Below, one piece after another: positions 2,558-64,000 of a stretch of 64,000 nucleotides of DNA (position 1 is its first letter; every line of letters starts with the position of its first letter). Source of the stretch: Candidatus Bathyarchaeota archaeon (GTDB lineage Archaea > Thermoproteota > Bathyarchaeia > Bathyarchaeales > DTEX01); NCBI GenBank assembly GCA_963714275.1, contig CAVQNT010000003.1:222034-286033 (forward strand). Direction: 5' to 3'. Made by a program: the position numbers and the translations under genes. Under the pieces are notes generated by a model, which saw nothing but the letters and a program-made list of their open reading frames with translations, was not told where the DNA came from and did not search any database.

Positions 2558-3342
2558 GTGAGGAAGAAGCTTGAACGCCAAGAAAAATCCTACGAAACCA
2601 CGCAGCTCATGAAAGAGAAAAGAAGCGAAGAATACGACGCTCTTGAGGAAGTTTTTGACCGTCCTACCTTGATGACGGTCTACGGACTCATGAACCGGGG
2701 TGAAATCCAAGAAATCCACGGAGCCGTTAAAGCTGGAAAAGAATCCAAGACTTTACTGGGGAACAAGATCAAACGGCGAAACGATCGCAATAAAAATTTT
2801 CTTAACCTTGTCCGCCGAGTTCCGTAAAGGCATGCTCATGTACATATCAGGCGATCCAAGATTCACGCATATCAAGAGGGACCCCCGAAGTATCATTTAC
2901 ACTTGGGCGAGGAAAGAGTACCGAAACCTGTCCGAGGCTTATGCGGCTAAGGTTCGGGTTCCCCAACCCTTTACTGTAGAGAACAACGTGCTTATAATGG
3001 AGTTCATCGGAAAAAGCGGGAAAAGTGCACCTCTGCTCAGAGAAACGGAGACTCCAGAATCCTCAGCGAACCTACGGTAAGCTGCTCAAGTACGTGGAAA
3101 GGCTCTACAAAAAGGCGAGACTCGTCCATGGGGACCTAAGCGAATACAATGTCATGATTTGGAAGGGTGAACCCGTAGTCTTCGACATGTCCCAAGCCGT
3201 CAACGTGAAACATCCGAACGCTCTTAAACTGCTGGAAAGAGACTTGGAGAACCTGAACCGATACTTTAATAGAATCGGCGTAGACGTAACTTCAACCGAA
3301 CGAACCTTTAGGAGGATCACTAGTGTCACAGCTGTTCGTTAA
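2558..3342 (+). CDS. rio1: RIO1 serine/threonine kinase (two frameshifts, near 2750 and 3051; start approximate)
   Basis: GKES, AIKIF, WARKEYRNL, LVHGDLSEYN and DMSQAV spread across three overlapping ORFs. Confidence 0.92.
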
Positions 3343-4008: not shown

Positions 4009-5821
4009 ATCTCAGAGACCTTCCAAGAAATTAGCCCCGCGGACTTTTTTTACCGCAACAGGGAAATCGCTGGCTTCACTAACCCAGCTCGGGCTATATT
4101 TGCCGCGATAAGGGAACTCGTCGAGAACTCTATGGATGCAACCGAAGCTGTAGGCATCCTTCCGGACGTCTACATTCGGCTGACGATGGATGGACAAAAC
4201 GGGACTAACGAAACATACACGCTCAGAGTTATGGACAACGGCTCAGGAATCCCCGCTCACCAGATGCCCCTTGCGCTTGGACAGTTTCTTTTCAGCTCGA
4301 AGTACAAGCTGAAGCAGGCTCGTGGAACCTTCGGGCTGGGCGGAACCATGACGATTCTTTACGGTCAGATAACGACGAACAAGCCTGTGATTGTCTTTTC
4401 AAGCACGGGAACCAGCCGAATCGTCGAATACAGGCTTATGATTGACATCGAGAGAAACCGCCCAATCATTCTTGACCGCAAGATTCACGTGAATCCCTCG
4501 AAAGATGGCGAAAGGTGGCATGGAACAATCGTTGAGCTTCACCTTGAAGGAAGCTATGCACAAGCCAGCGCAAAGGTCCTCGAGTACATCAAACAGACAG
4601 CCATAGTTAATCCCTACGCGAACATCACCTTCATCGACCCGAAGGGAAAATTCTACAAGTTTTATAGAACCATAACCGAGATTCCTCCGCCTCCAAGAGA
4701 AACCGACCCGCATCCGCACGGAGTAGACGTGGAAACCATACAGAGAATCATCAGGTCTACCAACACGCGGAACATGCACGACTTCATGCGGAAAAACTTC
4801 CACAGAGTCGGAGAAAAAACAGCCACAGAATTCCTCAAAGTAACCAACATCCCAGAAAAAACGAATCCAAAACGGCTGAGACCCGAAGAAATCGTGACGC
4901 TTGTCCAAAAAATGAAGGACTTCGAAGGCTTCCTGCCCCCGGACGCTGCGTGCCTGTCACCGCTTGGAGAAGAACTGCTCAGAGCAGGAGTCTTGAAGGA
5001 GCTTGAACCCGAGTTCGTGGCAGTTCGCCGAAGAAACCCAGCGACCTATTTAGGTCATCCGTTTATTGTCGAAATCGCTATCAGCTTACGGGGGAAAAGT
5101 TCCAGCAAAAGACGAGGTTCTGCTTTACAGATTCGCCAACAAGATTCCCTTGGTTTACGACGAGTCAGGCGACGTTTGCTGGAGAATAGTGAGGTCGGTG
5201 AACTGGAGAAGATACAACGTCGCACCGAACATGCCGGTCGCGGTGCTCATACACCTATGCAGCACAAAAATCCCGTACAAAACCGTAGGCAAAGAAATAA
5301 TATCAGACCAAGCTGAAGTCAGCAAAGAAATCCTCAACGCAATCAGAGAAGTAGCACGGGAACTCGCCCTCTACCTGTCCCGTAAAGAACGTGTCAGACG
5401 GCAGGTCAGAAGGCTAAACGTTTTCGCAAGGTACCTTCCAAAAATCGCCCAGTTCTCAGCAGGACTCAACGGAATCGAAAAGCCGCCTGAAACGGACAGG
5501 CTCTACAGAAGCCAGCAGGTCTTCAAGGACCTAACAACAAAAGACGAGTTCACGGACAGCGAACCGTTCGATTCAAGGCTTTACAGAACAGTACTTGTTC
5601 ACATAGCAAACAAGCATGAAGCCAACGCCGTGAACATCAAGGTGCTCGGGTTATCTGGTTCGCAGTGGACGGATCTAATCCCAGAATCCACGCTTACCTC
5701 AGGGTCTGAGCTCTACGAGACTCTTAAGGGCAACTTTAAGCAAGTTAAGGTTCAAGTAAAATCGTCAAAGCCTGGAAAGGAAGGCTTGATAGAGGCATAT
5801 GTTGATGGCGTAAGCGAATAA
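4009..5821 (+). CDS. top6B: DNA topoisomerase VI subunit B (frameshift near 5082; extra C-terminal domain)
   Basis: ISPADFFYRN, RELVENSMDA, DNGSGI and RGTFGLG GHKL motifs, PHPHG, RFANKIPL. The frame extends upstream of the called ORF to an ATC at 4009 behind GGAGG. Confidence 0.95.
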
Positions 5822-33229: not shown

Positions 33230-35307
33230 TTATTCATATTCTATTGTTAACATACGGAATGTCCGCAACTTTGGGACTTTCATACTCACGTATTCCCCTT
33301 TTTGTTTGAACGGAATGGTCCTGCCGTTTGGTTGAGACGATATTTTTAGGGTTTTTCCTTTAACCCTTACTTTTAATTGAACATTGTTGACTGGTATGTT
33401 CGGCATTCCGATTTCGGATTGAAAGTTAACAATGTTGACCAGGTATCTTCTTTCGTCAGGCTTGTGAAACAAGACGATTTCTGTGCATCCAGGGGTTACG
33501 GCTTCGAAGGAGAAAGGTTCTTTGGCTAAGAATCTTATGATGTTCGCAATTATGTTTCTGTGCTTAATCGATTTAGTGGCGAATGTTTCTATTGATGCTG
33601 ATGACCAAAGTATGTTTCCTTTTTTAAACTTTTTGTAGATCATCGCAGGAAAATCCGTAGGGATTCCTGGCGGGTTAGAATGGATGGACGCAAACTTTGT
33701 GGAATCATCAGGATTAGTGTAAGGTAACGTAATTGTCGCTAACGCGTCCTTTTTCGGTTCATGATTGACTTTTATTTGCGAATCTGAAATTGACAATGGA
33801 TGTTTTCCCGTGATCTCCGGGAAGAGCGTTTTACCCTTCGATGTTGGCGAAATGTAGGTTGTCTTTTCCTGTGTTTCTTCCAAAGCAGAAACGTCAAACA
33901 TTTCTGACAGTTTCGATTTCAACGAAAACTTACTAGCGTATACACTTCCTCCAGCAGCCACATAATTTTTCATGGCGTCCGCTTCCTCGTCAGACAATCT
34001 CAGAATATTCGGCAACATCACAACTTGGTGGCGCGATAACTCATCCAGATTCTTCTCGGTGATGACGCCGAAGGGAATGTGTTCGGTTCTCAACGTTTCT
34101 ACGCAGCCTAACGCTGCGTCCACATGCGGCAGAGTTCGGGCATATTCTTCGAGGACCTCTGGCGAAGGCTTTTTCCCATTCTCGGCAAAGTTCATCTTAG
34201 AGTTAAAACTGAAATAAATTGCAACGTCTTGGCAGAGTTCTCCTCCTAGATATTTTTCGTAATTACTTATTTCGTTGTATATGTCGCCTATGATGCGGTA
34301 TCTTCTTTTTTCCAAAGTGCCTGTCGGATCGATGGCGTCAATGATTAAGAATGCACCGTTGTGGGCGATTGTCAGGAAAGCTTGGGCTTCAATCAGTTCC
34401 TTAGGTTTCATCGTAGTGTGGTCATGCAGTCGGGGAAAACAGATCGAAGTGGAAAACGCGAATGGCATGTTTCGGGTAAGATTAAGAAAAAGTTTACAGA
34501 CGAAAGATTGCTGTAAGGCTCCACCATAAAAATCGCCATCAACAAAATCACACTGTTCCGCTAAAAGGGAAGTTACGCCGTAACTCCATTTGGCAGGCAG
34601 AGTTGAGGTTTGATGCTCAACCGTGGCTTTGGGCTTGTATTTTTTGACCGCGGAAGTAACCACCGCCGCAAACTCGCTAGCCATACTTCCCGTTTATTCT
34701 GAAACTTAGTCCAGTACGGATCGTCCCAATTGATTGTCGCGGGAAGATTATCTCCTTCTTCCTGCATGTACCTTTTTTTGCAGTTTGGGCAATAGCAGAC
34801 AACAGGCCAGAACGTCATGTCGAAGAAGATTCCTTCAAAATCGTAGTATCGGCACAGTTCCCCGATTTGGTCTAAAACAAACTTTCGGTATTCAGAGTTG
34901 GGGCAGCAGACACCGTAGCGTCCGTCTTGTCCCGGTTTTTCTCTCGACGTTTTTCCGTTTACGTCCATTATTCGCCATTCGGGATGCTGTTCGTAAGCCC
35001 AGTTGTTATAGATTAAGCTGTAATAAATGATTACGTCGATCCCTTCTTTGTGGCATAAGCCGATTACGGAGCCGAGGAAGTCTTTTCCCTTCAGTTCCCT
35101 GTGCATGTGACCCGTCTTTGTTGGCCAGTAACAGTAGCCCACATGCGAGTTTGCGTAAACCATGGCTGATTTTACGTTTGCGACTTTTAACATTTCCACG
35201 TATTTTTTCGGGTCAAGTTGAGACAGGAACCCTTCGTCCCAGTCCTCGATGTGCATGTCCACAAGGGTTCTTCGATAGCTGTCCCTGAACCACGCTTTCT
35301 CCTTCAT
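33230..35307 (-). CDS. Glycoside hydrolase-like protein (alpha-fucosidase/GH42-like TIM barrel plus trimerisation domain; frameshift near 34678)
   Basis: RRTLVDMHI, ANSHVG.CYWPTK, CPNS.YR and GIFFDM motifs; C-terminal class I GAT-like domain. Confidence 0.75.
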
Positions 35308-44282: not shown

Positions 44283-45558
44283 TTGAACTCTAGAGAACGC
44301 GTGTCGCTTGCATTGAACCATCAAGAACCAGACCGTGTCCCCCTTGATTTAGGTGCAAGCGCAGTCACTGGAATGCATGTGAGCACTGTCTATGCTTTGA
44401 GGCAAGCCTTGAAGCTGGACCCGCCTGAAACGCCTGTGATGGTCGTTGAACCTTACCAGATGCTGGGAGAGATAGCTCCCGACTTGATTAAAGCTTTAGG
44501 TGTTGACGTTGTTGGGTTAAGCAGCAAAGTAACAATGTTTGGATTCAGGAACGAGGGCTGGAAACGTTGGAGGCTGTCCGACGGAACTCCCGTTGTGGTT
44601 CCAGATAGATTCAACACGGCGCCTGATGCTGAAGGCAATGTCATGATGTATCCTCAGGGCGACAAGTCTGTGCCTCCATGTGCGAGAATGCCGAAAAACG
44701 GATTCTACTGCGACGCCCTTGACAGACAAAAACCGATCGACTGGGTAAACTTGGACGCATCTGATAATTTGGAGGAGTTCAGCTCCATTTCGAACGAAGA
44801 ACTAACCTATTATAGGAACGAGGCTGAGCGACTTTATGCGGAAACGGATAAAGTGTATATTTGCTGGTTTTGGCGGAACAGCTTTGGCGACATAGCCTCT
44901 TGTGCCAGGTCTGCAACTAAAGAATCCTAAGGGAATCAGAGGCGTCAAGGAATGGTACATGTGCCACGTTAGACGACCCGACTACATCCTGCAAGTCTTT
45001 GAACGCCAATGTGAAGTAGCGCTGAAAAATTTTGAAAAATTGTTTAAGGCTGTAGGAAACAAAGTTGCAGCAGTGTTTATTACGGGAACAGACTTTGGAA
45101 CCCAAAAGGGTCCCTTCATGTCAAATATTTCATATAGAAGGTTCTATAAGCCTTTTCATAAACGAATTAACGATTGGGTCCACGAAAACACTTCTTGGAA
45201 GACGTTCATGCATTCGTGCGGTTCCATAGAGCCGTTAATCACTGATATTATTGGGGCTGGATTCGACATTTTGAATCCTGTGCAAACCTCTGCCTCGAAT
45301 ATGGATCCTCGCATGCTTAAAGCCAAATATGGAGATAAGATAGTTTTTTGGGGTGGCGGAGTTGATACACAAAAAATTCTTCCCTTTGGCACGCCTAACC
45401 AAGTGAAAAAGGAAGTCCAGCAGCGTATCAGTATCTTTGCACCTGAAGGAGGTTTTATTTTCAACACCATCCACAATGTGCAGCCTAGAATACCAATTAA
45501 GAACGTCCTAGCAATGTATGATGCTGTTCGAAATTTTGGTTGGTACCGAATGAAGTAG
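44283..45558 (+). CDS. Uroporphyrinogen decarboxylase-family methyltransferase (MtaA/CmuA-like; indels near 44850-44900)
   Basis: HQEPDRVPLD, DFGTQ.GP, HSCG, NPVQ, FWGGGVD and HNVQ motifs. Confidence 0.87.
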
Positions 45559-53345: not shown

Positions 53346-54822
53346 TTATTTATTATAGCCCAAAACCTTAGCCAAGATTGCAGTTATTCTTTTCCCAACT
53401 ATTTGCCCCAAAAGTTGAACATCAGATTCGTTGAAAACCTTAAGAAACCTGATGCAGCCAATGTATACAGCAGCGCCTATGAAGACGTAGACTGGAAAAA
53501 GGACCAGGCTGTAGCGAACTTGCTGGACAGCTAAAACTACTACTGCCATTATGATTGATGAAATGAGCGCCTTGAACATTGCTTTTTTGTCAATTTTTAT
53601 TCTTACGATTTTTGAAAGGAAGAACATCGTTAATAGAAGTGTAACCAGAAGGGACACTCCTCTCATGGCAGCGAGTCCATTTAAGCCTGAAACCCAGATT
53701 AGTGGCAACAGACCTAGACTTAATAATACTGGAACAAGGCTGAGAAGTAAAAAGGTTTTTGTCTTCTCGTAGATTACAAGCAGACCAGTGAATGCGGGAA
53801 GCAACCCGTAAACCAGCCCAAAAACCGCCAATATTGCCAGAACACTCCATCCTGACTCGTACTGTTGACCTGCGAAAAGCGTGATCACGGGATTTGCTGT
53901 TGAGAGAAGCCCAAGTGCCAACGGGAAAATTATGAGTATAGTGTATCTGGTTGCCCTTTTAATGCCTAAGGCTATTGCCTCGTGGTCCTTTTTTCCGTAA
54001 GCCATGCCGTAGAAGGGGTAAAGGGCTGATCCAAGGGCTGTAGCCAACGCGGCTAACACGGTGAAAGCCTGGTAGCTTACATTGTAGATTCCTAAGTCTG
54101 TTAGAGGAAGGAAAGCCAGAATTATGACTCGGTCATACCACATGTAAATAAAAGAGACTATTGCAGTCACGAAGAGCGGCCAAGAAAACTTTAGGATGCC
54201 TGGGATTAAACTAACTCCTTGACTGAACATTTTTTCTCCACGCTTTAGAAGTCCGATGGAAGCAGTAGTGTAAAGAAGACAGCAGGACCAAATCGCCTGT
54301 TATCCATCCTATCACAGTGCCGTAGAATCCGTAGCCGCTCATTAAGAGAAACACGATGACAAGCCACCTTACAATAGTTGAGGAGATGGCTGAAACTGCG
54401 AGTCTTCTCATGCGCCCTGCTCCTAAAAGGATGCCGTTGAGAACAGGAGTGAAGGCTAAAATGAAACAGTCAAGAGTGGCCAGTCTGACAAGGTCATATC
54501 TGCCTGATTGGCTGAAAAGAACAGAAGACACGTTTGCTGAAAAAATGAACAGAACCAAACAAGGCAGAAGAGTTGCTGGAATCTTAATAATAAAAGCTCC
54601 CAAAATATGGGCAGACACATCTTCACCTCGACCTTTAAGTTCAGACACGAACTTAGGCAGTGAGGAAGCAAGCCCAAAATCAAAGACCGACTGGACGAAT
54701 GAGTTGACAAGGGTTAATGCAGTCAGCATCCCCATCTGTTCTTGGGTAATTACCCTTGCCAAGTAGGTGAGTCCGAATATGCCAATTAGGGTTGTGAACA
54801 TGGTTTGGAGGGTTAGGTACAT
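53346..54822 (-). CDS. Oligosaccharide flippase (Wzx/MOP family; frameshifted)
   Basis: Multi-TM; DFGL...LPKFVSE, DR.II..FL...LGIY and LYP motifs. Confidence 0.87.
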
Positions 54823-57956: not shown

Positions 57957-58190
57957 GTGGAGAAAGTTAAGGTGACGAGGAAGTATCAGGTCACAATCCC
58001 AAAGGCAGTTAGAGAAAGCATAGGTGTTAAGGTGGGGGATGAGTTGTTGGTTAGCGGGAGTGAACGGAGAATAGTCTTCGAAAAACCGGTGGACCTTGAG
58101 GAATTGGCTGGAGCATGGGTTCATGTTGAGAGCACAGATGGGTTCATGGAAAACGTGAAAACGATGTGGAAGACTTGGAAAGTGAAGTGA
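57957..58190 (+). CDS. vapB: AbrB/MazE-type antitoxin
   Basis: KVTRKYQVTIPKAVRE.IG.KVGD. Confidence 0.9.
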   Translation: MEKVKVTRKYQVTIPKAVRESIGVKVGDELLVSGSERRIVFEKPVDLEELAGAWVHVESTDGFMENVKTMWKTWKVK

Positions 58191-58609
58191 TATTCGACAC
58201 AGATGTAATAATTGACTACTTGAAGAGGAGGCCTGACCCAGACGCCAAACGGTTGTTCCATGAGGTTAAGGCGAATAAGATGACTGCCCATATGAGTCCC
58301 ATAACGGTTTTTGAGTTGTGTCGTGGAGCAAGGCTCTCACCAGAACCTGAGAGAAGGCTTGAAGAAGTAAAAATCCTCCGGTCCTACGTGAATGTCTTAC
58401 CATTCGATGCGGAAACCGCGGATAAGGCTTCAGAGATTTGTGTTTCTCTGGAAACGAGTGGAGAGCCGCTTGAAATACGAGATCTATTCATTGCTGCTTC
58501 AGCAATAATGCACGGGATTCCGCTAATCACCAGAAACATTTCGCACTTCAAGAGGGTTCCAGACTTAAGAGCGGTTACTCCAAGCGATTTGTTAGCCAAG
58601 CAGGGTTGA
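58166..58609 (+). CDS. vapC: VapC PIN-domain toxin
   Basis: FDTDVIID, T.FEL, DLFIAA and TRN..HF. Confidence 0.9.
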   Translation: MEDLESEVIFDTDVIIDYLKRRPDPDAKRLFHEVKANKMTAHMSPITVFELCRGARLSPEPERRLEEVKILRSYVNVLPFDAETADKASEICVSLETSGEPLEIRDLFIAASAIMHGIPLITRNISHFKRVPDLRAVTPSDLLAKQG

Positions 58610-58776: not shown

Positions 58777-59154
58777 TTATTCTTTGAGTTTCTCTCGTAT
58801 TATGTTTAGAAGTCTTTCGGGATCGACAGGTTTCTCAAGGTAACCATTTGCCCCAAGGTTCAAGCTTTCTATTGCGTTCTCCAAGGCAGCATAACCTGTG
58901 ATCATTATCGTTTTCATCCGTGGCGTCCCCATTTCCATGTCTTTCAGTAATCTTGTTCCCTTTATGTCTGGAAGCCGAATGTCTATTAAAGCTAGGTCAT
59001 AACGTTCTTTCTTTGTTTTCTCGACAGCTTCACATCCGGACTCAGCAGTATCAACAGTATATCCTTTTGCCTTTAGAATCTGTGCAATAGATCTGAGAAT
59101 TGCCGTGTCATCATCCACTATTAGGATTCTAGCCCTTGAGATGATGGGAGACAA
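58777..59154 (-). CDS. Single-domain response regulator receiver
   Basis: IVDDD, LIDIRLPD (phospho-Asp), ITG and KP. Confidence 0.92.
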   Translation of the reverse strand: MSPIISRARILIVDDDTAILRSIAQILKAKGYTVDTAESGCEAVEKTKKERYDLALIDIRLPDIKGTRLLKDMEMGTPRMKTIMITGYAALENAIESLNLGANGYLEKPVDPERLLNIIREKLKE

Positions 59155-59207: not shown

Positions 59208-59585
59208 TTAGGTATTGTTAAACTGACGAGTTAGGTTGACTATTGACTGTGGGGTTAATCCTAGTGCTTGACCTAGTTCTCTGTAGGTTGTTGTGATTCC
59301 AAGTTTCTTGCTTGCTACATAAATCGCTGCGCCTACAATCGTTCTTGTCGCACGATGGTGCATAAAATGCTTTTTTTCGCTGTTTTCGACTATTTTCATA
59401 GCTGTAGCAGAAAGCATGCTAAGACGTAGATTAATATCCAGATCCGAATTAGGCAGGTTAATAACGCCTTTTTGGTATAGGCGGTCGACTGCATCGGGAA
59501 AATCGATCAAGTGAATAAGTTCTATTATTTCGCTTGATCTTTGAAAGGTTATGTTCTCTTTTTTTTCTGTCATCGTTGTCGCCAA
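59208..59585 (-). CDS. Truncated TFB-like protein (single C-terminal cyclin/HTH repeat)
   Basis: VGAAIYVASKKLGITTTYRELGQALGLTPQSI parallels AAAALYIACKQAGEKKTQKEIADAAGVTEVTV of the TFB at 32236. Confidence 0.65.
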   Translation of the reverse strand: MATTMTEKKENITFQRSSEIIELIHLIDFPDAVDRLYQKGVINLPNSDLDINLRLSMLSATAMKIVENSEKKHFMHHRATRTIVGAAIYVASKKLGITTTYRELGQALGLTPQSIVNLTRQFNNT

Positions 59586-59761: not shown

Positions 59762-60556
59762 CTAGCCCAGACGCGCGTTAGCCAATCCAAGCTGGTCAGC
59801 GATCTCAGCCAATTCCGTGTTTAGTGGATGTTCACTAGATACCAATATTTGTTTTTCTGGATCTAGGAAATCACAGTAGCAAGGAATCACTGCAATGACA
59901 AGTTTTCGAAGAATTTCTGGCAGTCGATTCATAAACCTATCTTTCGAATGCTCAGACCATTGTTCTCTATCTGGAAAGACTTTGTTCAAAACGATCTTGG
60001 CTTTGTCTTCAAAAAGGTCTTCATACTCTCTGAACAAGTTGGCTAAGCCTTGCAGGTCTAAACTATCTTGTGTTGAGACGAAAACTACAGTGTCAGACGA
60101 CACAATAGTATTTAATGAAGAATAGTGAACACCTGGACCATTATCATATATTATTATTGGATTATTGAGATCCCTTTCAAGGCTTTTTTTTAGATGGAAG
60201 AGATTACGCAATGCTTTCGCTTCCCAATTCCTGCTTTTTGCTGACATTTCTTCGATTGCAGAAATGGAAGGGTCTGCTGAACCTATCAGTAGTTTTCCCT
60301 TCGTCCCAAACTTGTCTCCCAGATCAAAAAGCATATCTTGTGGTTGACAACGTGAATCCAGAAATTCATTGACATATTGTTTAACTGGCTTTCCGGCAGA
60401 ATTTTTGAAGACATGGAAAAAGTGAGGAGCTCTGAAATCCATATCTATTGCTACCGTGTCGACTCCGCTTAAAGCCTAGGGAGAATGCAAGATTCGTGAC
60501 AATGGTGGTCTTGCCTGTTCCACCTCTTGATGAACAAAACGAGACTACATGTGTCA
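59762..60556 (-). CDS. MinD/ParA-family ATPase (frameshift near 60475)
   Basis: Upstream frame gives SSRGGTGKTT (deviant Walker A), then IDMDFRAP, DNGPG and LNKV. Confidence 0.85.
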
Positions 60557-60558
60557 CT

Positions 60559-61011
60559 CTAAATCACCTTTGCAGGCAGGGAGCGTTTCAATCTAAAATA
60601 TGTCTTCCTACCTATTCTCCTCTTTTCCAGGTAACCAAGCCTTGTAAGCTGGTTTGCATAAGCGCTTTCCATGGCTCTCTTTCTCTTAGTTTCCTTTGAA
60701 ATCTCGTCTGCCGTAGTTTCCCCGATCCTTGCTACTGTAATAACAGTCTTGCGAAGAGAACTCGGTAGCGAAAGTAAAACGAGAACGTCAGGAAGGGAGT
60801 CGAGAGCCTCGGCACTTTCGAGCGAGGTATTTGCTTTGCTGAGGTGTTGTTGTAATTCCTTTTGGGTTTCAAGTATTTTGTCGACAGAAGCTTGGATGTT
60901 GTCGACCTTTGATTTCAATATTTTGAGATCCTTGAGTATGTCGGTTTCTGGCGCTTTCATATCTGGCAGCATTCCAGTAATTTCTTCACTTATGTATATC
61001 TGTATATACAT
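60559..61011 (-). CDS. Coiled-coil plus winged-helix DNA-binding protein
   Basis: N-terminal heptads; LPSSLRKT..GETTADEIS..TKR.RA.ESAY.NQL..GYL...R.GRK.YF. Confidence 0.8.
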   Translation of the reverse strand: MYIQIYISEEITGMLPDMKAPETDILKDLKILKSKVDNIQASVDKILETQKELQQHLSKANTSLESAEALDSLPDVLVLLSLPSSLRKTVITVARIGETTADEISKETKRKRAMESAYANQLTRLGYLEKRRIGRKTYFRLKRSLPAKVI

Positions 61012-61354
61012 ATAAACTTAAAGACTGGTGTCTGACAGTGAAAAAGGGGACGAATCTTAGATAATGCTGCAATGCCATCATTGAAGCTAAAGGTGAAAAT
61101 ATCACCGAAGGGTCAGAAACGGGGATTTAGTCACTCCAAAGCCGATTACATGCTTCTCCACTCCTTTTACTAGTGTCACCAACTCGACGTAGACATAGTA
61201 GTCTTTGAACCTCCATCCTGATATGGAGTTTATATGCATGAAGGCGTCCTATGCGCGGGCGTGAATGTTCTCTCATGCCTTATTACCGATGAATGTTTGA
61301 ATTTTTAAATGTTTTAAGTAAGATTAATCTTCCAGTTTCCTCCTGATTCTGTTC

Positions 61355-62293
61355 ATGTCTGTAGGTGGAAATTTGTGGGGTGAAAGGAAAAAGGCTGCAA
61401 TAAGGATAAGGGCAAAGATATTAGCAGCGATTAGGTCATGGTTTAAGAAACATGACTACGTTGAAGTTCAAGGGCCAATAATAATCCCTGCGATAGGGAA
61501 TTGGTCTAACTATGTTGAGGTGAAGTATCCCGGTAAGAAAGCTTATCTTGGGCATGGATTGCAGCCATATGCTAACATTTTGATGACGAATATTGGGAAA
61601 ATCTATGCCATAAGTCCAGCCTTCAGGTCGGCTGAAGTGGAGAGTGGAGACATCTAGTAGAATACTGGCAAATAGAAGCAGAAATCCCGCAGCGTGACCT
61701 GAATTGCATCATTGGGACTCAAGAACAGCTTCTGAGCTATGTTTGTCAGAGCCTTTCTAAAGAAGCTGAGAGAAGAGTTGGAGATCGTACAACGCGATGT
61801 CAAAGATCTGAGTAAGATTCACCCACCTTTTCCACTGCTAACTTATGACGACGCTATAAAGCTGCTGCAAGAAGAAGGTGTTGATGTTCAATGGGGAACA
61901 ACATTAGATTGGGATCATGAAAAGCACCTAAGTCTCCGGTTTGGCCAGCCCTTCTTCATCTCGGAATTTCCAATCGGGATCGAGACTTTTTTCTTCCAAC
62001 AGCACCCTCAGAAACCAGAGGCGACTCTATCCGTAGATCTCTTTGCGCCAGAAGGTTATGGGGAAATCTCCACAGGAGGACAACCAGTTTTCAGAAAAGA
62101 AGAGTTGCAGAGAAAGATGAAAGAAGAGCAAATAGGGTCCAATGAACAGGAATGGTACATGCAACTCAATGAAGAAATTCCCTACTCAGGGTTCGCGATG
62201 GGAGTAGAAAGGTTAACTCAGTGGATCTGCAAACTTGAACATATAAAAGAGGCGTCAGCCTTCCCAAGGTTGCTAGGCGATATTTATCCTTGA
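61355..62293 (+). CDS. AsnRS/AspRS-like class IIb catalytic domain without anticodon-binding domain (two or more indels)
   Basis: Motif 1 (YVEVQGP), motif 2 (FR..E..RHLVEYWQIEAE, bridged manually), VDLFAPEGYGEI, motif 3 (GFAMGVERL) and FPR; no OB-fold. Confidence 0.85.
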
Positions 62294-63488
62294 TTTGATG
62301 AGTGTCTCATTTTTCTCTTGACGAGAGAGATGTAGGACTTCAGGCGAATTCTTTCGCGGAAATCTCGTTGTAACAGTTCTGGGGCGAATAATAGCGGTAT
62401 GTTCGAGAGAAATATCAACAAGCAACTGATAATGGAAGCAACCGTCAAAGGAATGTTGGAGAGTTGAGAACCGAAAAGAGACCCTATGCCCGTGGCGAAA
62501 TAATAGATTACTAATCCAATGGAATACATGCGGAGGTGTGTTTCGGCGTTGGCAAGGTCTCCCCAGACTACAAATAGATACAAGGTTAGAAAAATCCCCC
62601 ATGTTAGACCAATTCCGATATATGACAAATAGAAAAGTTCATAGCTTTGTGCCAATCCTGAAATTGCTGACTAATACCGTACAAGATAAGTCCAGTGACC
62701 AGAGATGGTCTCCTTCCAACAAAATCTGCCATTAGCCCACCTAAGAGAGCTCCAATGCTGCCTCCTACAACCTGTAGTGTCAGCAGCAACGCCACAGAAT
62801 TCAGATTGAATTGATGTGAAACATGAAGAGAAATAGTGTTCCCTAAAGTTGCATTAATCACAGAGAAAGCTAACCATGGAATTGAGTAAAGCAGAACCGT
62901 CCTCTTTCCAGTATATCTCTCCAAGTCTCTTCTTCCTGATTGTATCGTTTCTCTCTTTGGACGCAAAAATAGGACTGCCATCATTTGCCCAGTCTAGAAT
63001 GACAGAGAGTATCAATGTCACGGAGAAATCTACATTTTCCAACTGAAGCATACACTAACGGGAAAATTAGTAGAGAAATGAACCCAAGCAAGCCCCGACA
63101 TTCGTCCTCTTTCCTCAGGTACTGTTTTCTCCCAAAACAATGCAAAAAGTGCTAGTTGACCTATGCCAAAGACAGCTCCAGGGAGAAGAAAAATCGCTAT
63201 TCTCAATATGGCGTTTGGGATCAGGGTAAGGTGATTAGGATTGTTCCTACAGAGGAGAACATTGACCACGTTGCAACTAGAGAGGTCTTGGAAACGCGTT
63301 GCATGAGAAAGCAAGTGAGTATTGTTCCAAAGGACACAGAAAAACAGAGGAACCCATACCAACTCAGCAAGGTCTCATTAGATTCTCCAACAATGTAACT
63401 CAAGATTCTGTACGAAAGAATATGGTACCAGGTAAAAAAAGAGAAAGAGGGGTATCGCCAAACCTGCTAAGTCGCGCTTGTCAATCAA
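62284..63488 (-). CDS. MFS-type transporter (several frameshifts)
   Basis: GLMADFVGRR motif A, PEERGR and multiple TM segments across four or more ORF fragments. Confidence 0.75.
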
Positions 63489-63598
63489 ATCCCGCTTAGA
63501 AAGACTTCCACTCGGAATCACGCCTTTATTTGTTCTATACCTAGGAAAGAATAAAGTCTTTGTGTCAAAATTTATAAGGATAGAGAATACATTTTGTT

Positions 63599-63832
63599 AT
63601 GGTAAGTATGAAAAACCTTAAGAATAGAATAGCAGAAGTCTCGCAGTATCTTCAACGCTTGATGGAGCCTGACGTTTTTCCAGAAGTTCAGAATGCTGTG
63701 GAAAGAAAGGACAAAAACCTTCTTGTAAGAGTATGTAGAAAAATCGAGATACCCATAGTATATGTACCGATCATAACATCACTGCTGCTCTCAGTCAGTC
63801 CCCAGCAAAAATGGCCAACGCCACAGACCTAA
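63599..63832 (+). CDS. 77-aa hypothetical protein, divergent from the MFS gene
   Basis: Own TATA (TTTATAAG near 63570); amphipathic helical N-terminus and QQKWPTPQT tail. Confidence 0.7.
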   Translation: MVSMKNLKNRIAEVSQYLQRLMEPDVFPEVQNAVERKDKNLLVRVCRKIEIPIVYVPIITSLLLSVSPQQKWPTPQT

Positions 63833-63837
63833 GGTAC

Positions 63838-64000
63838 TCAGAACTGCAAGTTCGAAAGCGTTTCCAAAAAAATCTTCGACTGTGCCTGCAGAAGGAACTC
63901 CAACAACTTCGTAGCGTTGTTGGCTCGCAACTTAGATAGTTCCTTATCGCCCTTTTGTTTTAACTTTTCGAGAAGACGAACGGTATGTTCAGTCGCGTTG
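63838..64000 (-). CDS. C-terminal end of an unidentified ORF entering from beyond the window
   Basis: Open frame NATEHTVRLLEKLKQ...LSNLQF then TGA. Confidence 0.4.
   Translation of the reverse strand, partial: NATEHTVRLLEKLKQKGDKELSKLRANNATKLLEFLLQAQSKIFLETLSNLQF

Follow-up and report, generated by a model that had tools for sequence, protein, structure and literature searches.

The ligase encoded in the window, by which we mean the whole 64,000-nucleotide stretch of DNA analyzed here, represents a new, well-populated family of stand-alone aminoacyl-tRNA synthetase (aaRS) cores. Alignment and phylogeny show the family to be distinct and to have arisen from an asparaginyl-tRNA synthetase (AsnRS) of Bathyarchaeia through loss of its anticodon-binding domain; the ligase gene belongs to a conserved accessory module. 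The strict co-inheritance of the ligase with genes for an MFS-type membrane protein, a small protein (p77), and a polyprenyl-synthase-like protein points to a pathway, not yet described, that would modify peptides or proteins instead of serving protein synthesis.

Stand-alone aaRS cores have been recruited outside translation repeatedly, as exemplified by AS-A, EpmA, and the carrier-protein ligases. To our knowledge, peptide signals, RiPP-like products, and protein prenyl lipidation are hardly known from this uncultured archaeal lineage. No description of the ligase family or the module was found in the literature as represented by listings and the opening parts of abstracts, and an archaeal RiPP preprint (10.1101/2024.10.07.616454) is without the words Bathyarchae, prenyl, synthetase, ComQ, and MFS.

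Table 1. Features of the ligase locus, in window coordinates
Feature	Position	Strand	Remarks
ParA/MinD-like P-loop ATPase	59762..60557	-	Frameshifted in window; 40% identity over 232 aa
Coiled-coil + winged-helix (TrmB-like) HTH protein	60559..61011	-	43–65% identity to module HTH proteins
Ligase: class IIb catalytic core of AsnRS origin, no anticodon-binding domain	61355..62293	+	About 313 aa read through
MFS-type membrane protein	62284..63521	-	At least 4 frame pieces in window; about 405 aa in relatives
Small protein p77	63599..63832	+	Likely start ATG 63608, giving 74 aa
Polyprenyl-synthase-like gene, 3′ end (last ~53 codons)	63838..64000	-	5′-open ORF, converges on p77

An interrupted ligase gene

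Translated in a single frame, the ligase gene yields an N-terminal part (100 aa), stops, and a C-terminal part (184 aa). Between these parts, the -1 frame stays open and encodes the motif-2 core RHLVEYWQIEAEIP; the locus is therefore read as a single class IIb core that two 1-nt indels, at about 61644 and about 61768, divide into three frame pieces. Pfam PF00152 spans the three pieces in order (profile positions 16–105, 110–147, and 140–306 of 308). The first-pass annotation, which had proposed from the sequence an anticodon-less AsnRS-like ligase beside an MFS transporter and a small protein, called for these indels to be repaired, and the repair is found in related contigs that are 96–97% alike and come from three runs in three studies: they carry one additional base after 61644 and lack one at 61768/9, compensating indels that restore the ligase frame. 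The same contigs have further indels at 62670, 63035, and 63093 within the MFS gene. In other parts of the window, the essential genes RIO1 and topoisomerase VI-B are likewise split. Given the compensating indels in relatives and the split essential genes, the ligase frame breaks most likely arose in assembly and do not reflect decay.

It is hardly credible, by comparison, that the ligase and MFS genes are a decaying pseudogene pair whose frameshifts are real in the window genome. Such a pair would account for the frameshifts (two in the ligase gene, three or more in the MFS gene) and for the departure of the window ligase at 11 of 130 columns conserved at 90% or more (the family median is 3). 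However, besides the compensating indels and the split essential genes, 8 of the 11 departing columns recur in P0001, an intact ligase relative of 312 aa that is 90% identical to the window ligase, and other family members depart at up to 21 columns.

A catalytic core with an altered amino-acid pocket

The ligase core matches PF00152 at E 2.9e-55 and has the features of a class II aaRS core; its closest PDB match is the Pyrococcus horikoshii AsnRS 1x54. Residue 11 of P0001 aligns with residue 130 of 1x54, so that no anticodon-binding domain is present, and neither the Pfam search, which gives only PF00152, nor the family lengths of 312–314 aa reveal an N-terminal OB-fold anticodon-binding domain. 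The earlier description of the product as a class IIb catalytic core and nothing else is thus upheld by both the profile match and the alignment, as is its observation that three elements gripping Asp or Asn are altered: where AsnRS 1x54 reads VEGGATLF, YLSQSAQLY, and GEIIGGSQRE, the window reads AIGNWSNY, YLGHGLQPY, and GEISTGGQP.

These changes are conserved across a large family rather than scattered as in random decay. Among 112 aligned members (P. horikoshii AsnRS numbering), E168 has become Gly in 110, S188 Gly in 111, A189 Leu in 111, and L191 Pro in 102, while E228 is retained in 111. R364, the Arg of GGSQR in 1x54, which we take to be the residue that binds the Asn side chain, is replaced in 107 of the 112 members, by Met (75), Pro (28, including the window), Ile (3), or Leu (1), such that Met or Pro occupies the position in 103 and Arg persists in 5.

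The elements that handle ATP present a different picture. The window ligase has motif 3 (GVER) together with the Asp of VDL and the Glu of GEI, as the first-pass annotation had noted; the motif-2 Glu that it also counted as kept is in fact Ala in the window and in P0001 (FRSA / FRPA). This Glu of FRAE is found in 109 of the 112 family members, as is the motif-2 Arg (R91), and RHL (R99, H100, L101), the GYGE Glu, and the motif-3 residues G279, F280, G283, E285, and R286 occur in all 112. Judged by these alignments, the family is shown to keep every element predicted to serve ATP binding and adenylate formation, with an amino-acid pocket that is changed yet strongly conserved. A near-invariant Gln of the family is His in the window ligase and Arg in P0001; taken together with the motif-2 Ala, this substitution means that ligase activity could be weakened in the lineage of the window.

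Descent and class assignment

Relatives of the ligase number 214 at E ≤ 1e-10, most of them 312–314 aa long. In the tree, the family forms one clade (37 rows, SH-aLRT 100) nested among the Bathyarchaeia AsnRS, whereas five AS-AR-like proteins of related genomes, so labeled by their length and motifs, form a clade of their own (100) near the AspRS outgroup. The phylogeny that had been proposed as a check thus places the ligase outside the AS-AR-like paralogues and apart from ordinary AsnRS. Profile scores agree with this placement. P0001 scores 235.3 bits against the NCBIfam AsnRS model NF003037 (cut-off 414) and 205 against TIGR00457 (342.6), and the ligase orthologue of locus L138 reaches 251.7 bits against the AsnRS cut-off of 414; the AS-AR models NF005052/53/54/55 give P0001 192.2 versus 368, 46 versus 322, 126.3 versus 309, and 47.7 versus 389, and the EpmA/PoxA model TIGR00462 gives 52.2 versus 286.9. 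The C-terminal piece of the ligase matches AS-AR 3p8t at 4.5e-9 versus 6e-43 for AsnRS 1x54.

The ligase is not a housekeeping gene: the window genome also has a full AsnRS, and the ligase family was found in none of the six same-genus genomes searched. A scan of genome contigs with the ligase alignment gave, among the matches listed, ordinary AsnRS at 34–45% identity, of no use for synteny. Public records, where they name these proteins at all, call them 'asparagine--tRNA ligase' or 'asparaginyl-tRNA synthetase'; as a rule for annotation, AsnRS-like genes of about 313 aa that lie by the MFS/p77 pair should count as neither AsnRS nor asparagine synthetase when metabolism is reconstructed.

The ligase shares the architecture of AS-AR, its AsnRS-like core having no anticodon domain; NF005052 (asparagine synthetase A) is the third-best NCBIfam model for P0001 at 192 bits, and the Glu matching AsnRS E228 is retained. 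It is nonetheless improbable that the ligase makes asparagine, or some other amino-acid amide, in the manner of AS-A/AS-AR, with ammonia attacking an adenylated carboxylate. P0001 stays below the NF005052 cut-off (192 versus 368); the ligase is separated in the tree from AS-AR-like paralogues of related genomes that keep the Arg (GEAISGGERE), which is gone in 107 of the 112 ligases; the gene occurs in only about 3% of sampled species and always alongside the module; and the window genome already has Asn_synthase-domain genes.

A conserved accessory module

The module comprises seven genes, in the general order ligase, MFS, p77, polyprenyl-synthase-like, HTH, ParA-like, and PadR. The ligase and MFS genes converge, as do the p77 and polyprenyl-synthase-like genes, and the HTH gene is followed in the same direction by the ParA-like gene and, variably, a PadR gene. 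Orientations thus alternate, and the genes do not form one operon. The 3′ ends of the ligase and MFS genes overlap in 22 of the 23 loci measured; the HTH gene diverges from the ligase in the window and from the synthase-like gene in most loci.

Linkage was counted in 68 metagenome loci anchored on p77 and is given as present among testable: MFS 54/55, ligase 36/37, synthase-like 57/58, HTH 38/39, ParA-like 25/26, and PadR 17/23. The linkage of ligase, MFS, and small protein is thus tight in other genomes, and stronger than the first-pass annotation had proposed; that annotation missed the synthase-like gene and the HTH/ParA-like pair at 59762–61011. None of the outcomes that it had named as fatal to its reading (placement with AS-AR or AsnRS, an unconserved pocket, unlinked genes) was encountered. 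Of 11 loci compared directly, L023 lies at a contig edge and L147 has a truncated ordinary AsnRS without the module; the module is present in all 9 fetched loci with a family ligase and flanking room. The ligase and p77, the latter by strong matches, occur in an identical set of 12 genomes among 401 of Bathyarchaeia, a module frequency of about 3% of sampled species, and p77 was not found in the same-genus genomes sampled. One locus (L198) has MFS, p77, and synthase-like genes without a ligase and another (L145) has the module without the synthase-like gene, and neither enzyme is therefore obligatory.

The MFS gene ends at about 63521, tblastn with relatives covering 62287–63485. Its window piece scores 35.2 bits against PF07690 and the intact L138 orthologue 36.5, versus a gathering cut-off of 33.4, and the family carries the conserved motif G..ADffGRr. 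The TrmB match of the HTH protein is weak (E 0.005). The ParA-like protein has CbiA/AAA_31/ParA domain matches and the conserved motifs HSSRGGTGKT and C-Y-C. No conserved protease or sensor kinase is found among the conserved families of the module, PADLOC gave two chance-level matches only on the seven module proteins, and a search of viral contigs with p77 gave no match. Among the sequencing runs listed, none is of RNA, and the shares in DNA runs are all small (≤0.17).

The motif-2 loop of class IIb enzymes contacts the tRNA acceptor end, and in the ligase family this loop (FRAEKLRT.RHL) is well conserved, as would be expected of a minimal tRNA-charging enzyme whose core aminoacylates the acceptor stem, possibly supplying a non-standard amino acid to tRNA-dependent tailoring. 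The absence of the anticodon-binding domain argues against such a role, as do the loci themselves: no tRNA gene lies in or beside the five scanned for tRNA, no Rfam family was found in the three scanned for Rfam, and no aminoacyl-tRNA-using transferase is recognizable in the module (Pfam/NCBIfam on the seven proteins; conserved families). We regard tRNA charging as very improbable.

The small protein p77

The 77-aa open reading frame singled out by the first-pass annotation is real and conserved in relatives, with its likely start at the internal ATG of Table 1. The relatives are 73–77 aa long; mean column identity in the N-terminal domain is 65%, A33, D38, C46, and P52 are invariant, and K71 and P73 nearly so. 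An AF2 model (pLDDT 85.8) predicts a four-helix domain (helices 7–64) followed by a tail with pLDDT <70. The window tail reads P-x-Q-K-W-P and then four variable residues, and the family tail has a conserved K-[W/Y]-P and then 3–4 hypervariable residues. The aromatic residue sits 5–6 residues from the C-terminus; it is Trp in most listed tails and Tyr in 10 of 58 distinct endings, in several sub-clades. The QQKWP tail had been recognized earlier, whereas the conserved motif and the hypervariable end had been overlooked.

The proposed likeness to a Nif11-type leader is not supported, with no Pfam match at E ≤ 0.1 and no fold match; more broadly, kinship of p77 with Nif11, ComX, or carrier proteins found no support, there being no Pfam or NCBIfam match at E ≤ 0.1. 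Searches of the model with Foldseek against the PDB and with VIA-align wide gave nothing above chance (best Z 5.4), and a Protein Atlas search with p77 gave no usable match. Co-folding of the ligase with p77 (score 0.25, mark 0.32) gives no verdict either way. Ligases with a Gln-Pro pocket pair with 4-residue p77 tails and those with Gln-Met with 3-residue tails, a pairing that follows the tree and is therefore not independent evidence.

The polyprenyl-synthase-like gene

The segment 63838–64000 matches residues 289–337 of an isoprenyl-diphosphate-synthase (IDS)-like family by tblastn (E 8e-7). Window and contig end together here, so that the rest of the gene is lost, and the remainder had no match elsewhere in the window genome with the query used. 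In relatives, the protein is modeled (AF2 pLDDT 91.2) with a trans-IDS fold, TM 0.78–0.81 to 1wy0. Its first Asp-rich motif (FARM) reads W-D-D-x-x-D, with D91 and D95 invariant, and its second is reduced to [K/N/Q]-D-F. The basic N-terminal motif, which in canonical synthases binds isopentenyl diphosphate, is mostly lost.

In ComQ-family peptide prenyltransferases, the first Asp-rich motif is reported to be intact and the second degenerate (PMC5331326; bioRxiv 10.64898/2026.08.29.745113), and the synthase-like protein has the structural signature of the ComQ type, a trans-IDS fold with the first motif kept and the second degenerate. Ord1 (PDB 9v4g-i), the one prenyltransferase of this kind encountered in the PDB, falls behind many GGPP/polyprenyl synthases, at 8e-10 versus 2e-24 by sequence and at ranks 37–40 by fold; the nearer relatives of the synthase-like protein are thus archaeal GGPP synthases, ahead of Ord1.

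A proposed pathway and its alternatives

Tentatively, and with rather less than even confidence, we propose that the module may modify the flexible C-terminal tail of p77, or a peptide released from p77. The synthase-like enzyme would prenylate the conserved Trp/Tyr of the tail, following the logic of ComQ and ComX. The ligase would use ATP to convert a substrate other than Asn into its acyl- or aminoacyl-AMP and would then hand the acyl group to an amine, for which the near-invariant tail Lys of p77 is the best candidate; such acylation would follow the logic of EpmA and EF-P, in which a stand-alone class II core acylates a protein Lys. The MFS protein would export the product or import the substrate, and the HTH, ParA-like, and PadR proteins would be regulators. 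The ligase, MFS, p77, and FARM-only synthase-like genes constitute a cloneable four-gene unit testable for a new post-translational modification.

Several features sit uneasily with tail modification. A minority of p77 tails carry Tyr, not Trp, and all characterized trans-IDS-like peptide prenyltransferases are reported to act on Trp (PMC13290415). Archaeal GGPP synthases, not Ord1, are the closer kin of the synthase-like protein; p77 has no ComX or Nif11 Pfam match; the module has no conserved protease or sensor kinase and is not a single operon; and L198 lacks the ligase and L145 the synthase-like gene.

The ligase and MFS genes always form a converging pair with overlapping 3′ ends, and the minimal conserved core is MFS plus p77 (L198, L145). 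Both facts would suit a small-molecule pathway in which the ligase, by itself or jointly with the synthase-like enzyme, produces a metabolite from an amino acid, such as an amide or prenylated amino-acid conjugate, that the MFS protein moves out or in, p77 being a regulator, chaperone, or transporter accessory and not the substrate. Such a pathway is also consistent with Ord1, a trans-IDS-like enzyme that prenylates free tryptophan (PMC13290415; PDB 9v4g-i), and with the N-terminal domain of p77 (mean column identity 65%), which is far more conserved than that of ComX, a region reported to have no obvious conserved sequence (PMC5331326). We nevertheless consider it doubtful: a folded domain with a disordered, motif-bearing, hypervariable tail resembles a modified or recognized peptide, and a purely regulatory role would leave the K-[W/Y]-P motif unexplained.

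Within the tail-modification reading, a more specific scenario can be drawn, which in its entirety is unlikely. The module would be horizontally mobile; a recruited archaeal IDS homologue would prenylate the Trp/Tyr of the p77 tail and a tRNA-independent, AsnRS-derived ligase would aminoacylate the adjoining Lys; and the peptide would be released and exported by the MFS protein, its hypervariable last residues giving strain-specific 'pherotypes'. If true, this would constitute the first ComX-like signaling or antagonism peptide in archaea and the third independent instance in which an aaRS core became an aminoacyl ligase for proteins or peptides.

Comparison with known systems

Like AS-AR (PDB 3p8t/1nnh; NF005052-55), the ligase is a stand-alone AsnRS-like class II core of similar length and predicted to be adenylate-forming. 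Unlike AS-AR, its clade is nested in Bathyarchaeia AsnRS, the AS-AR-like paralogues lying near the AspRS outgroup; its Arg has given way to Met/Pro; it falls below all four NCBIfam cut-offs; and it is a fixed part of a module of seven genes.

EpmA/PoxA, a core of LysRS descent, attaches beta-lysine to a lysine of the protein EF-P. The ligase shares with it the state of an aaRS catalytic core without an anticodon domain, would by analogy acylate a Lys of a protein partner, and is strictly co-inherited with a small candidate partner protein bearing a near-invariant Lys. However, the ligase is derived from AsnRS and not LysRS, p77 is not EF-P, and the candidate Lys of p77 lies, unlike that of EF-P, in a disordered C-terminal tail.

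The amino acid:[carrier protein] ligases are SerRS-like cores that load carrier proteins. They too combine a truncated class II aaRS homologue with a nearby helical protein of about 80 aa. They differ in their parent synthetase, and p77 has no carrier-protein Pfam match, no carrier-protein fold among the matches listed (best Z 5.4), and no conserved Ser in a DS motif.

A formal parallel to the p77 side of the module is offered by ComQ/ComX (StheQ/StheX, PalQ), where a synthase-like protein whose first Asp-rich motif is intact and whose second is degenerate likewise adjoins a precursor-sized protein (73 aa in the module). ComX is described as 53–73 aa long and highly variable in sequence, with its Trp third or fourth from the end (PMC5331326, PMC4008528), and p77 similarly has a conserved aromatic residue near the C-terminus within a hypervariable tail. 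Since p77 has no ComX family match at E ≤ 0.1 (Pfam), the likeness is one of form only; sequence homology to ComX was not detected, and Tyr replaces Trp in some tails. A census of com loci reports none outside Firmicutes (PMC4008528). Unlike the comQXPA operon, the archaeal module has converging p77 and synthase-like genes, dispenses with the ComP/ComA pair, and adds a ligase and an MFS protein.

Conservation of the gene neighborhood

The main new result of this analysis is the conservation of the neighborhood in which a short, AsnRS-derived ligase is encoded. In a class sample of 401 Bathyarchaeia species genomes, family-type short ligases occur in at least 11, namely, the window's own, four at 53–57% identity, and six at 43–47% identity to P0001, a relative of 312 aa that is 90% identical to the window ligase and has an intact frame. 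Eleven loci of related genomes were compared (L023 plus ten extracted regions), and the neighbors and their order agree in nine: ligase (+), MFS protein (−), small protein (+), a 340-aa gene (−), HTH protein (+), ParA/MinD-like ATPase (+), and often a PadR-like protein (+). The linkage of ligase, MFS gene, and small protein across Bathyarchaeia, raised in the first-pass annotation, is borne out in these nine loci. Of the other two, L023 lies at a contig edge and retains the ligase, HTH, and ParA-like genes only, and L147 (genome G095) lacks the module. The window itself has the HTH/ParA pair upstream of the ligase, on its other side, as do L023 and L161, and holds only the last ~53 codons of the 340-aa, synthase-like gene, which is cut by the contig end.

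The distribution of the small protein (p77) closely follows that of the ligase. Its profile gave strong matches in 12 of the 401 Bathyarchaeia genomes, 11 of which are ligase genomes; in the twelfth, 65% complete, the small protein is preceded at the contig edge by the final 37 codons of a ligase. Within the genus, searches of six genomes recovered no member of the ligase family, and p77 was likewise not detected in the same-genus genomes sampled; a phylum-wide sample of 401 genomes yielded p77 in only two, both in the window's order. A metagenome contig scan anchored on the small protein recovered 68 loci, in which, wherever the contig reaches far enough for a gene to be testable, the MFS gene is present in 54/55, the ligase in 36/37, the synthase-like gene in 57/58, the HTH gene in 38/39, the ParA-like gene in 25/26, and PadR in 17/23. 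The two exceptions are L198, where the MFS, small protein, and synthase-like genes are present and the ligase is absent, and L145, without the synthase-like gene. The ligase is co-inherited obligately with the MFS protein and the tailed small protein, and nearly always with the synthase-like gene. Among flanking-gene families, no further conserved family surrounds the module, and its members include no protease or sensor kinase.

Several features of the locus merit separate description (table). The convergent ligase and MFS genes share a few bases at their 3′ ends in the window and in 22 of 23 other loci; the small protein and synthase-like genes, likewise convergent, overlap by a few bases or lie at most 14 nt apart in 21 of 22. 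Although the orientations of the four biosynthetic genes alternate, their order is preserved, an unusual arrangement for genes inherited together. The ParA/MinD-like ATPase (26 loci) has a deviant Walker A motif, HSSRGGTGKT, and, close to its C-terminal third, a conserved C-Y-C, possibly a site for a metal or cluster. A receiver-only response regulator is encoded three genes from the window ligase; a 52%-identical one lies directly upstream of the ligase in L141 (L141:2-301), and the remaining ten loci of that comparison showed none. An ORF with a single TFIIB cyclin repeat occupies the PadR-like gene's usual place in the window, which yielded no PadR homologue. The translations of two small, overlapping ORFs (77 and 147 aa) contain motifs suggestive of an antitoxin of the AbrB/SpoVT type and, after it, a toxin with a PIN domain. 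In 4 of 28 long loci (L140:2144-3361, L197:3-656, L198:4207-5361, and L207:2561-3583), a family of ~385-aa proteins lies next to the module.

Features of the window discussed in the text
Feature	Position	Strand	Remark
RIO1 kinase	2700-3342		split
Topoisomerase VI subunit B	4132-5821		split
Further split genes	44283-45558 (URO-D-like); 53346-54822 (polysaccharide synthesis); 33230-35307 (perhaps GHL6-type glycosidase)		
Two overlapping small ORFs	57957-58609	+	
Response regulator	58777-59154	−	PF00072, 2.3e-31
TFIIB cyclin-repeat ORF	59208-59585	−	125 aa; PF00382, 4.6e-6
ParA/MinD-like ATPase	59762-60557		
Ligase	61355-62293	+	more than one frame
Ligase/MFS 3′ overlap	62284-62293		

Reading frames and probable assembly indels

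The ligase frame runs for 100 codons before stops intervene; from 61739 it is open again for 184 codons. The intervening gap is open in the neighboring frame, where it encodes the heart of class II motif 2, RHLVEYWQIEAEIP, and PF00152 covers the three pieces in order (profile 16–105, 110–147, and 140–306; Pfam); the gene therefore encodes one catalytic core interrupted by two compensating 1-nt indels. The repair of these indels called for at first pass was addressed by comparing Logan contigs of four public runs with 61300–63900, the fourth run being without depth across both break points. Contigs 96–97% alike, from three runs of three studies, have one additional base after 61644 and one fewer at 61768/61769, exactly the two ligase break points, and their MFS gene differs by further indels, at 62670, 63035, and 63093. 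Because the indels compensate, the relatives' genes are intact. The frameshifts in the window's ligase and MFS genes are best read as assembly errors; they may instead be a strain-specific lesion. That the ligase is a pseudogene, as its broken frame might suggest, fits the evidence less well and is highly improbable.

Other conserved genes in the window are likewise broken into adjoining ORFs; they encode topoisomerase VI subunit B, RIO1 kinase, a URO-D-like protein, a protein of polysaccharide synthesis, and perhaps a glycosidase of the GHL6 type. For topoisomerase VI subunit B and RIO1, the two halves correspond to successive stretches of a single Pfam profile; matching or scanning covered one piece of each of the others. 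The assembly looks indel-rich, and gene counts and "pseudogenes" of this genome consequently need care.

Origin and active site of the ligase

Of 319 candidates found with the C-terminal piece of the ligase, 214 proteins reached E ≤ 1e-10; among the 120 matches listed, most are 312–314 aa, at 52–90% identity. Public names of family members are "asparagine--tRNA ligase," "asparaginyl-tRNA synthetase," and "amino acid--tRNA ligase-related protein." The closest solved structure to P0001 is Pyrococcus horikoshii AsnRS (1x54, 1.8e-64), and the alignment starts at AsnRS residue 130, past the anticodon-binding domain, in agreement with the earlier description of a catalytic core only. No NCBIfam model reached its cut-off (AsnRS 235 vs. 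414, asparagine synthetase A 192 vs. 368, EpmA 52 vs. 287). The window genome also encodes a full AsnRS (437-aa frame, 44% identity) and an AspRS. That the ligase is a minimal tRNA-charging enzyme is very improbable and accords less well with the evidence.

The phylogeny was inferred from 98 rows by IQ-TREE quick search (LG+G4, SH-aLRT support only). The family was represented by the window protein (its pieces joined, with X marking each of the two breaks), 26 of 112 full-length members, and 10 verified-cluster ligases; the other rows were every second Bathyarchaeia AsnRS locus, loci of a genome-contig profile scan (the first eight, then every third), five AS-AR-like paralogues, and the AsnRS and AspRS of the window genome. 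A single clade (support 100, stem 0.44) nested among Bathyarchaeia AsnRS contains all 37 rows of the family, and AS-AR-like proteins form a separate clade adjoining the AspRS outgroup, so that the tree proposed at first pass sets the two apart. The match of the ligase C-terminal piece to the solved asparagine synthetase A of archaea (3p8t) reaches only 4.5e-9, and genes with Asn_synthase domains are present in the window genome; an asparagine synthetase is an improbable identity for the ligase and fits the evidence less well.

Five loci (L024–L028, in genomes G026, G032, G029, G033, and G025 of related families) encode a second short AsnRS/AspRS-like paralogue of ~330 aa with GEAISGGERE, the Arg being kept. 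These form their own clade near the AspRS outgroup in the 98-row tree and are probably true AS-AR-type asparagine synthetases; ligase searches detected no module-type ligase in the five genomes. A 315-aa AsnRS-like frame, L147 (G095:C3:48759-49676), has no module around it and nests among ordinary Bathyarchaeia AsnRS. It is probably a truncated or mis-started ordinary AsnRS, and length alone therefore cannot mark the new family.

Residues were counted across the 112 full-length members in P. horikoshii AsnRS numbering. The ATP-handling elements are kept throughout the family, as was claimed for the window protein: the motif-2 Arg in 109, RHL in 112, the DL Asp in 110, and the GYGE Glu and motif 3 G..G.ER in all 112. 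The amino acid pocket is rebuilt, with E168 of the flipping loop replaced by Gly (110/112), S188 by Gly (111/112), A189 by Leu (111/112), L191 by Pro (102/112), and L193 by Ala (99/112). The reported loss of the side-chain-binding Arg extends across the family: R364 of GGSQR is retained in just 5, with Met in its place in 75, Pro in 28, and Ile/Leu in 4. E228, which we take to be the other residue binding the Asn side chain in AsnRS, is retained in 111. Since these positions have changed alike, the alignment indicates a different pocket under purifying selection, not decay. The window ligase and P0001 belong to a Gln-Pro sub-branch in which the motif-2 Glu is replaced by Ala and a near-invariant Gln by His/Arg, and the window ligase has 11 deviations at 130 conserved columns (family median 3, maximum 21). 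At the sequence level, the ligase is established as a class II core of the predicted adenylate-forming type, without tRNA-anticodon recognition and with a conserved pocket predicted to be non-Asn.

The portions of the literature consulted (listings and abstract openings, plus text look-ups) contain no description of the ligase family or the module. The family would take its place among aaRS-core paralogues working outside translation, with a genuine possibility of its being something more.

The small protein, its putative modification, and known systems

An alignment of sixty p77 sequences has a mean column identity of 65%, with A33, D38, C46, and P52 unchanged throughout and K71 and P73 nearly so. 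An AlphaFold2 model has four helices (residues 7–64, pLDDT above 90) and a low-confidence tail, P-[E/D/Q/N]-Q-K-[W/Y]-P, followed by three residues without consensus or, in the window's sub-branch, by four final residues, x-P-x-x. No family (Pfam, NCBIfam), fold, or Atlas match to p77 was found.

The 340-aa protein is a polyprenyl-synthetase homologue (PF00348, 5.9e-12). Its first Asp-rich motif is kept (W-D-D-x-x-D; D91 and D95 invariant), the second has one Asp left ([K/N/Q]-D-F), and the basic N-terminal motif that characterizes chain-elongating synthases is reduced to W-R. The model is confident (pLDDT 91.2), and the best fold match is P. horikoshii GGPP synthase (TM 0.78–0.81).

We tentatively favor modification of the small protein's tail by the ligase and the synthase-like enzyme, with MFS transport and dedicated regulators, although as a whole this scheme falls somewhat short of an even chance. 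The tail would be the workpiece, and its aromatic residue would be prenylated by the synthase-like enzyme. The ligase may hand on its activated acyl group to an amine, the neighboring Lys being the most plausible acceptor, by analogy with EpmA, which acylates EF-P. The MFS protein would carry the product or precursor across the membrane, and the HTH, ParA-like, and PadR proteins might regulate from divergent promoters. The main rival, which we consider unlikely, is that the genes make up a pathway for a small molecule and that p77 is not a substrate.

The ComQ/ComX system offers a parallel. ComQ-family peptide prenyltransferases have a conserved first motif and a "pseudo" second one (PMC5331326; bioRxiv 10.64898/2026.08.29.745113), and ComX precursors are 53–73 aa with very variable sequences, the prenylated Trp lying third to fourth from the C-terminus, or fifth from the end in the six-residue natto pheromone (PMC5331326; PMC4008528). 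A com-locus census reports none outside Firmicutes (PMC4008528), and characterized trans-IDS-like prenyltransferases all act on Trp (PMC13290415), whereas some p77 tails have Tyr. The synthase-like protein stands closer to archaeal synthases than to the single trans-IDS-like prenyltransferase encountered in the PDB, Ord1. Like ComQ, it combines an intact first Asp-rich motif with a degenerate second, and the resemblance of the module to ComQ/ComX appears clear as a likeness of form.
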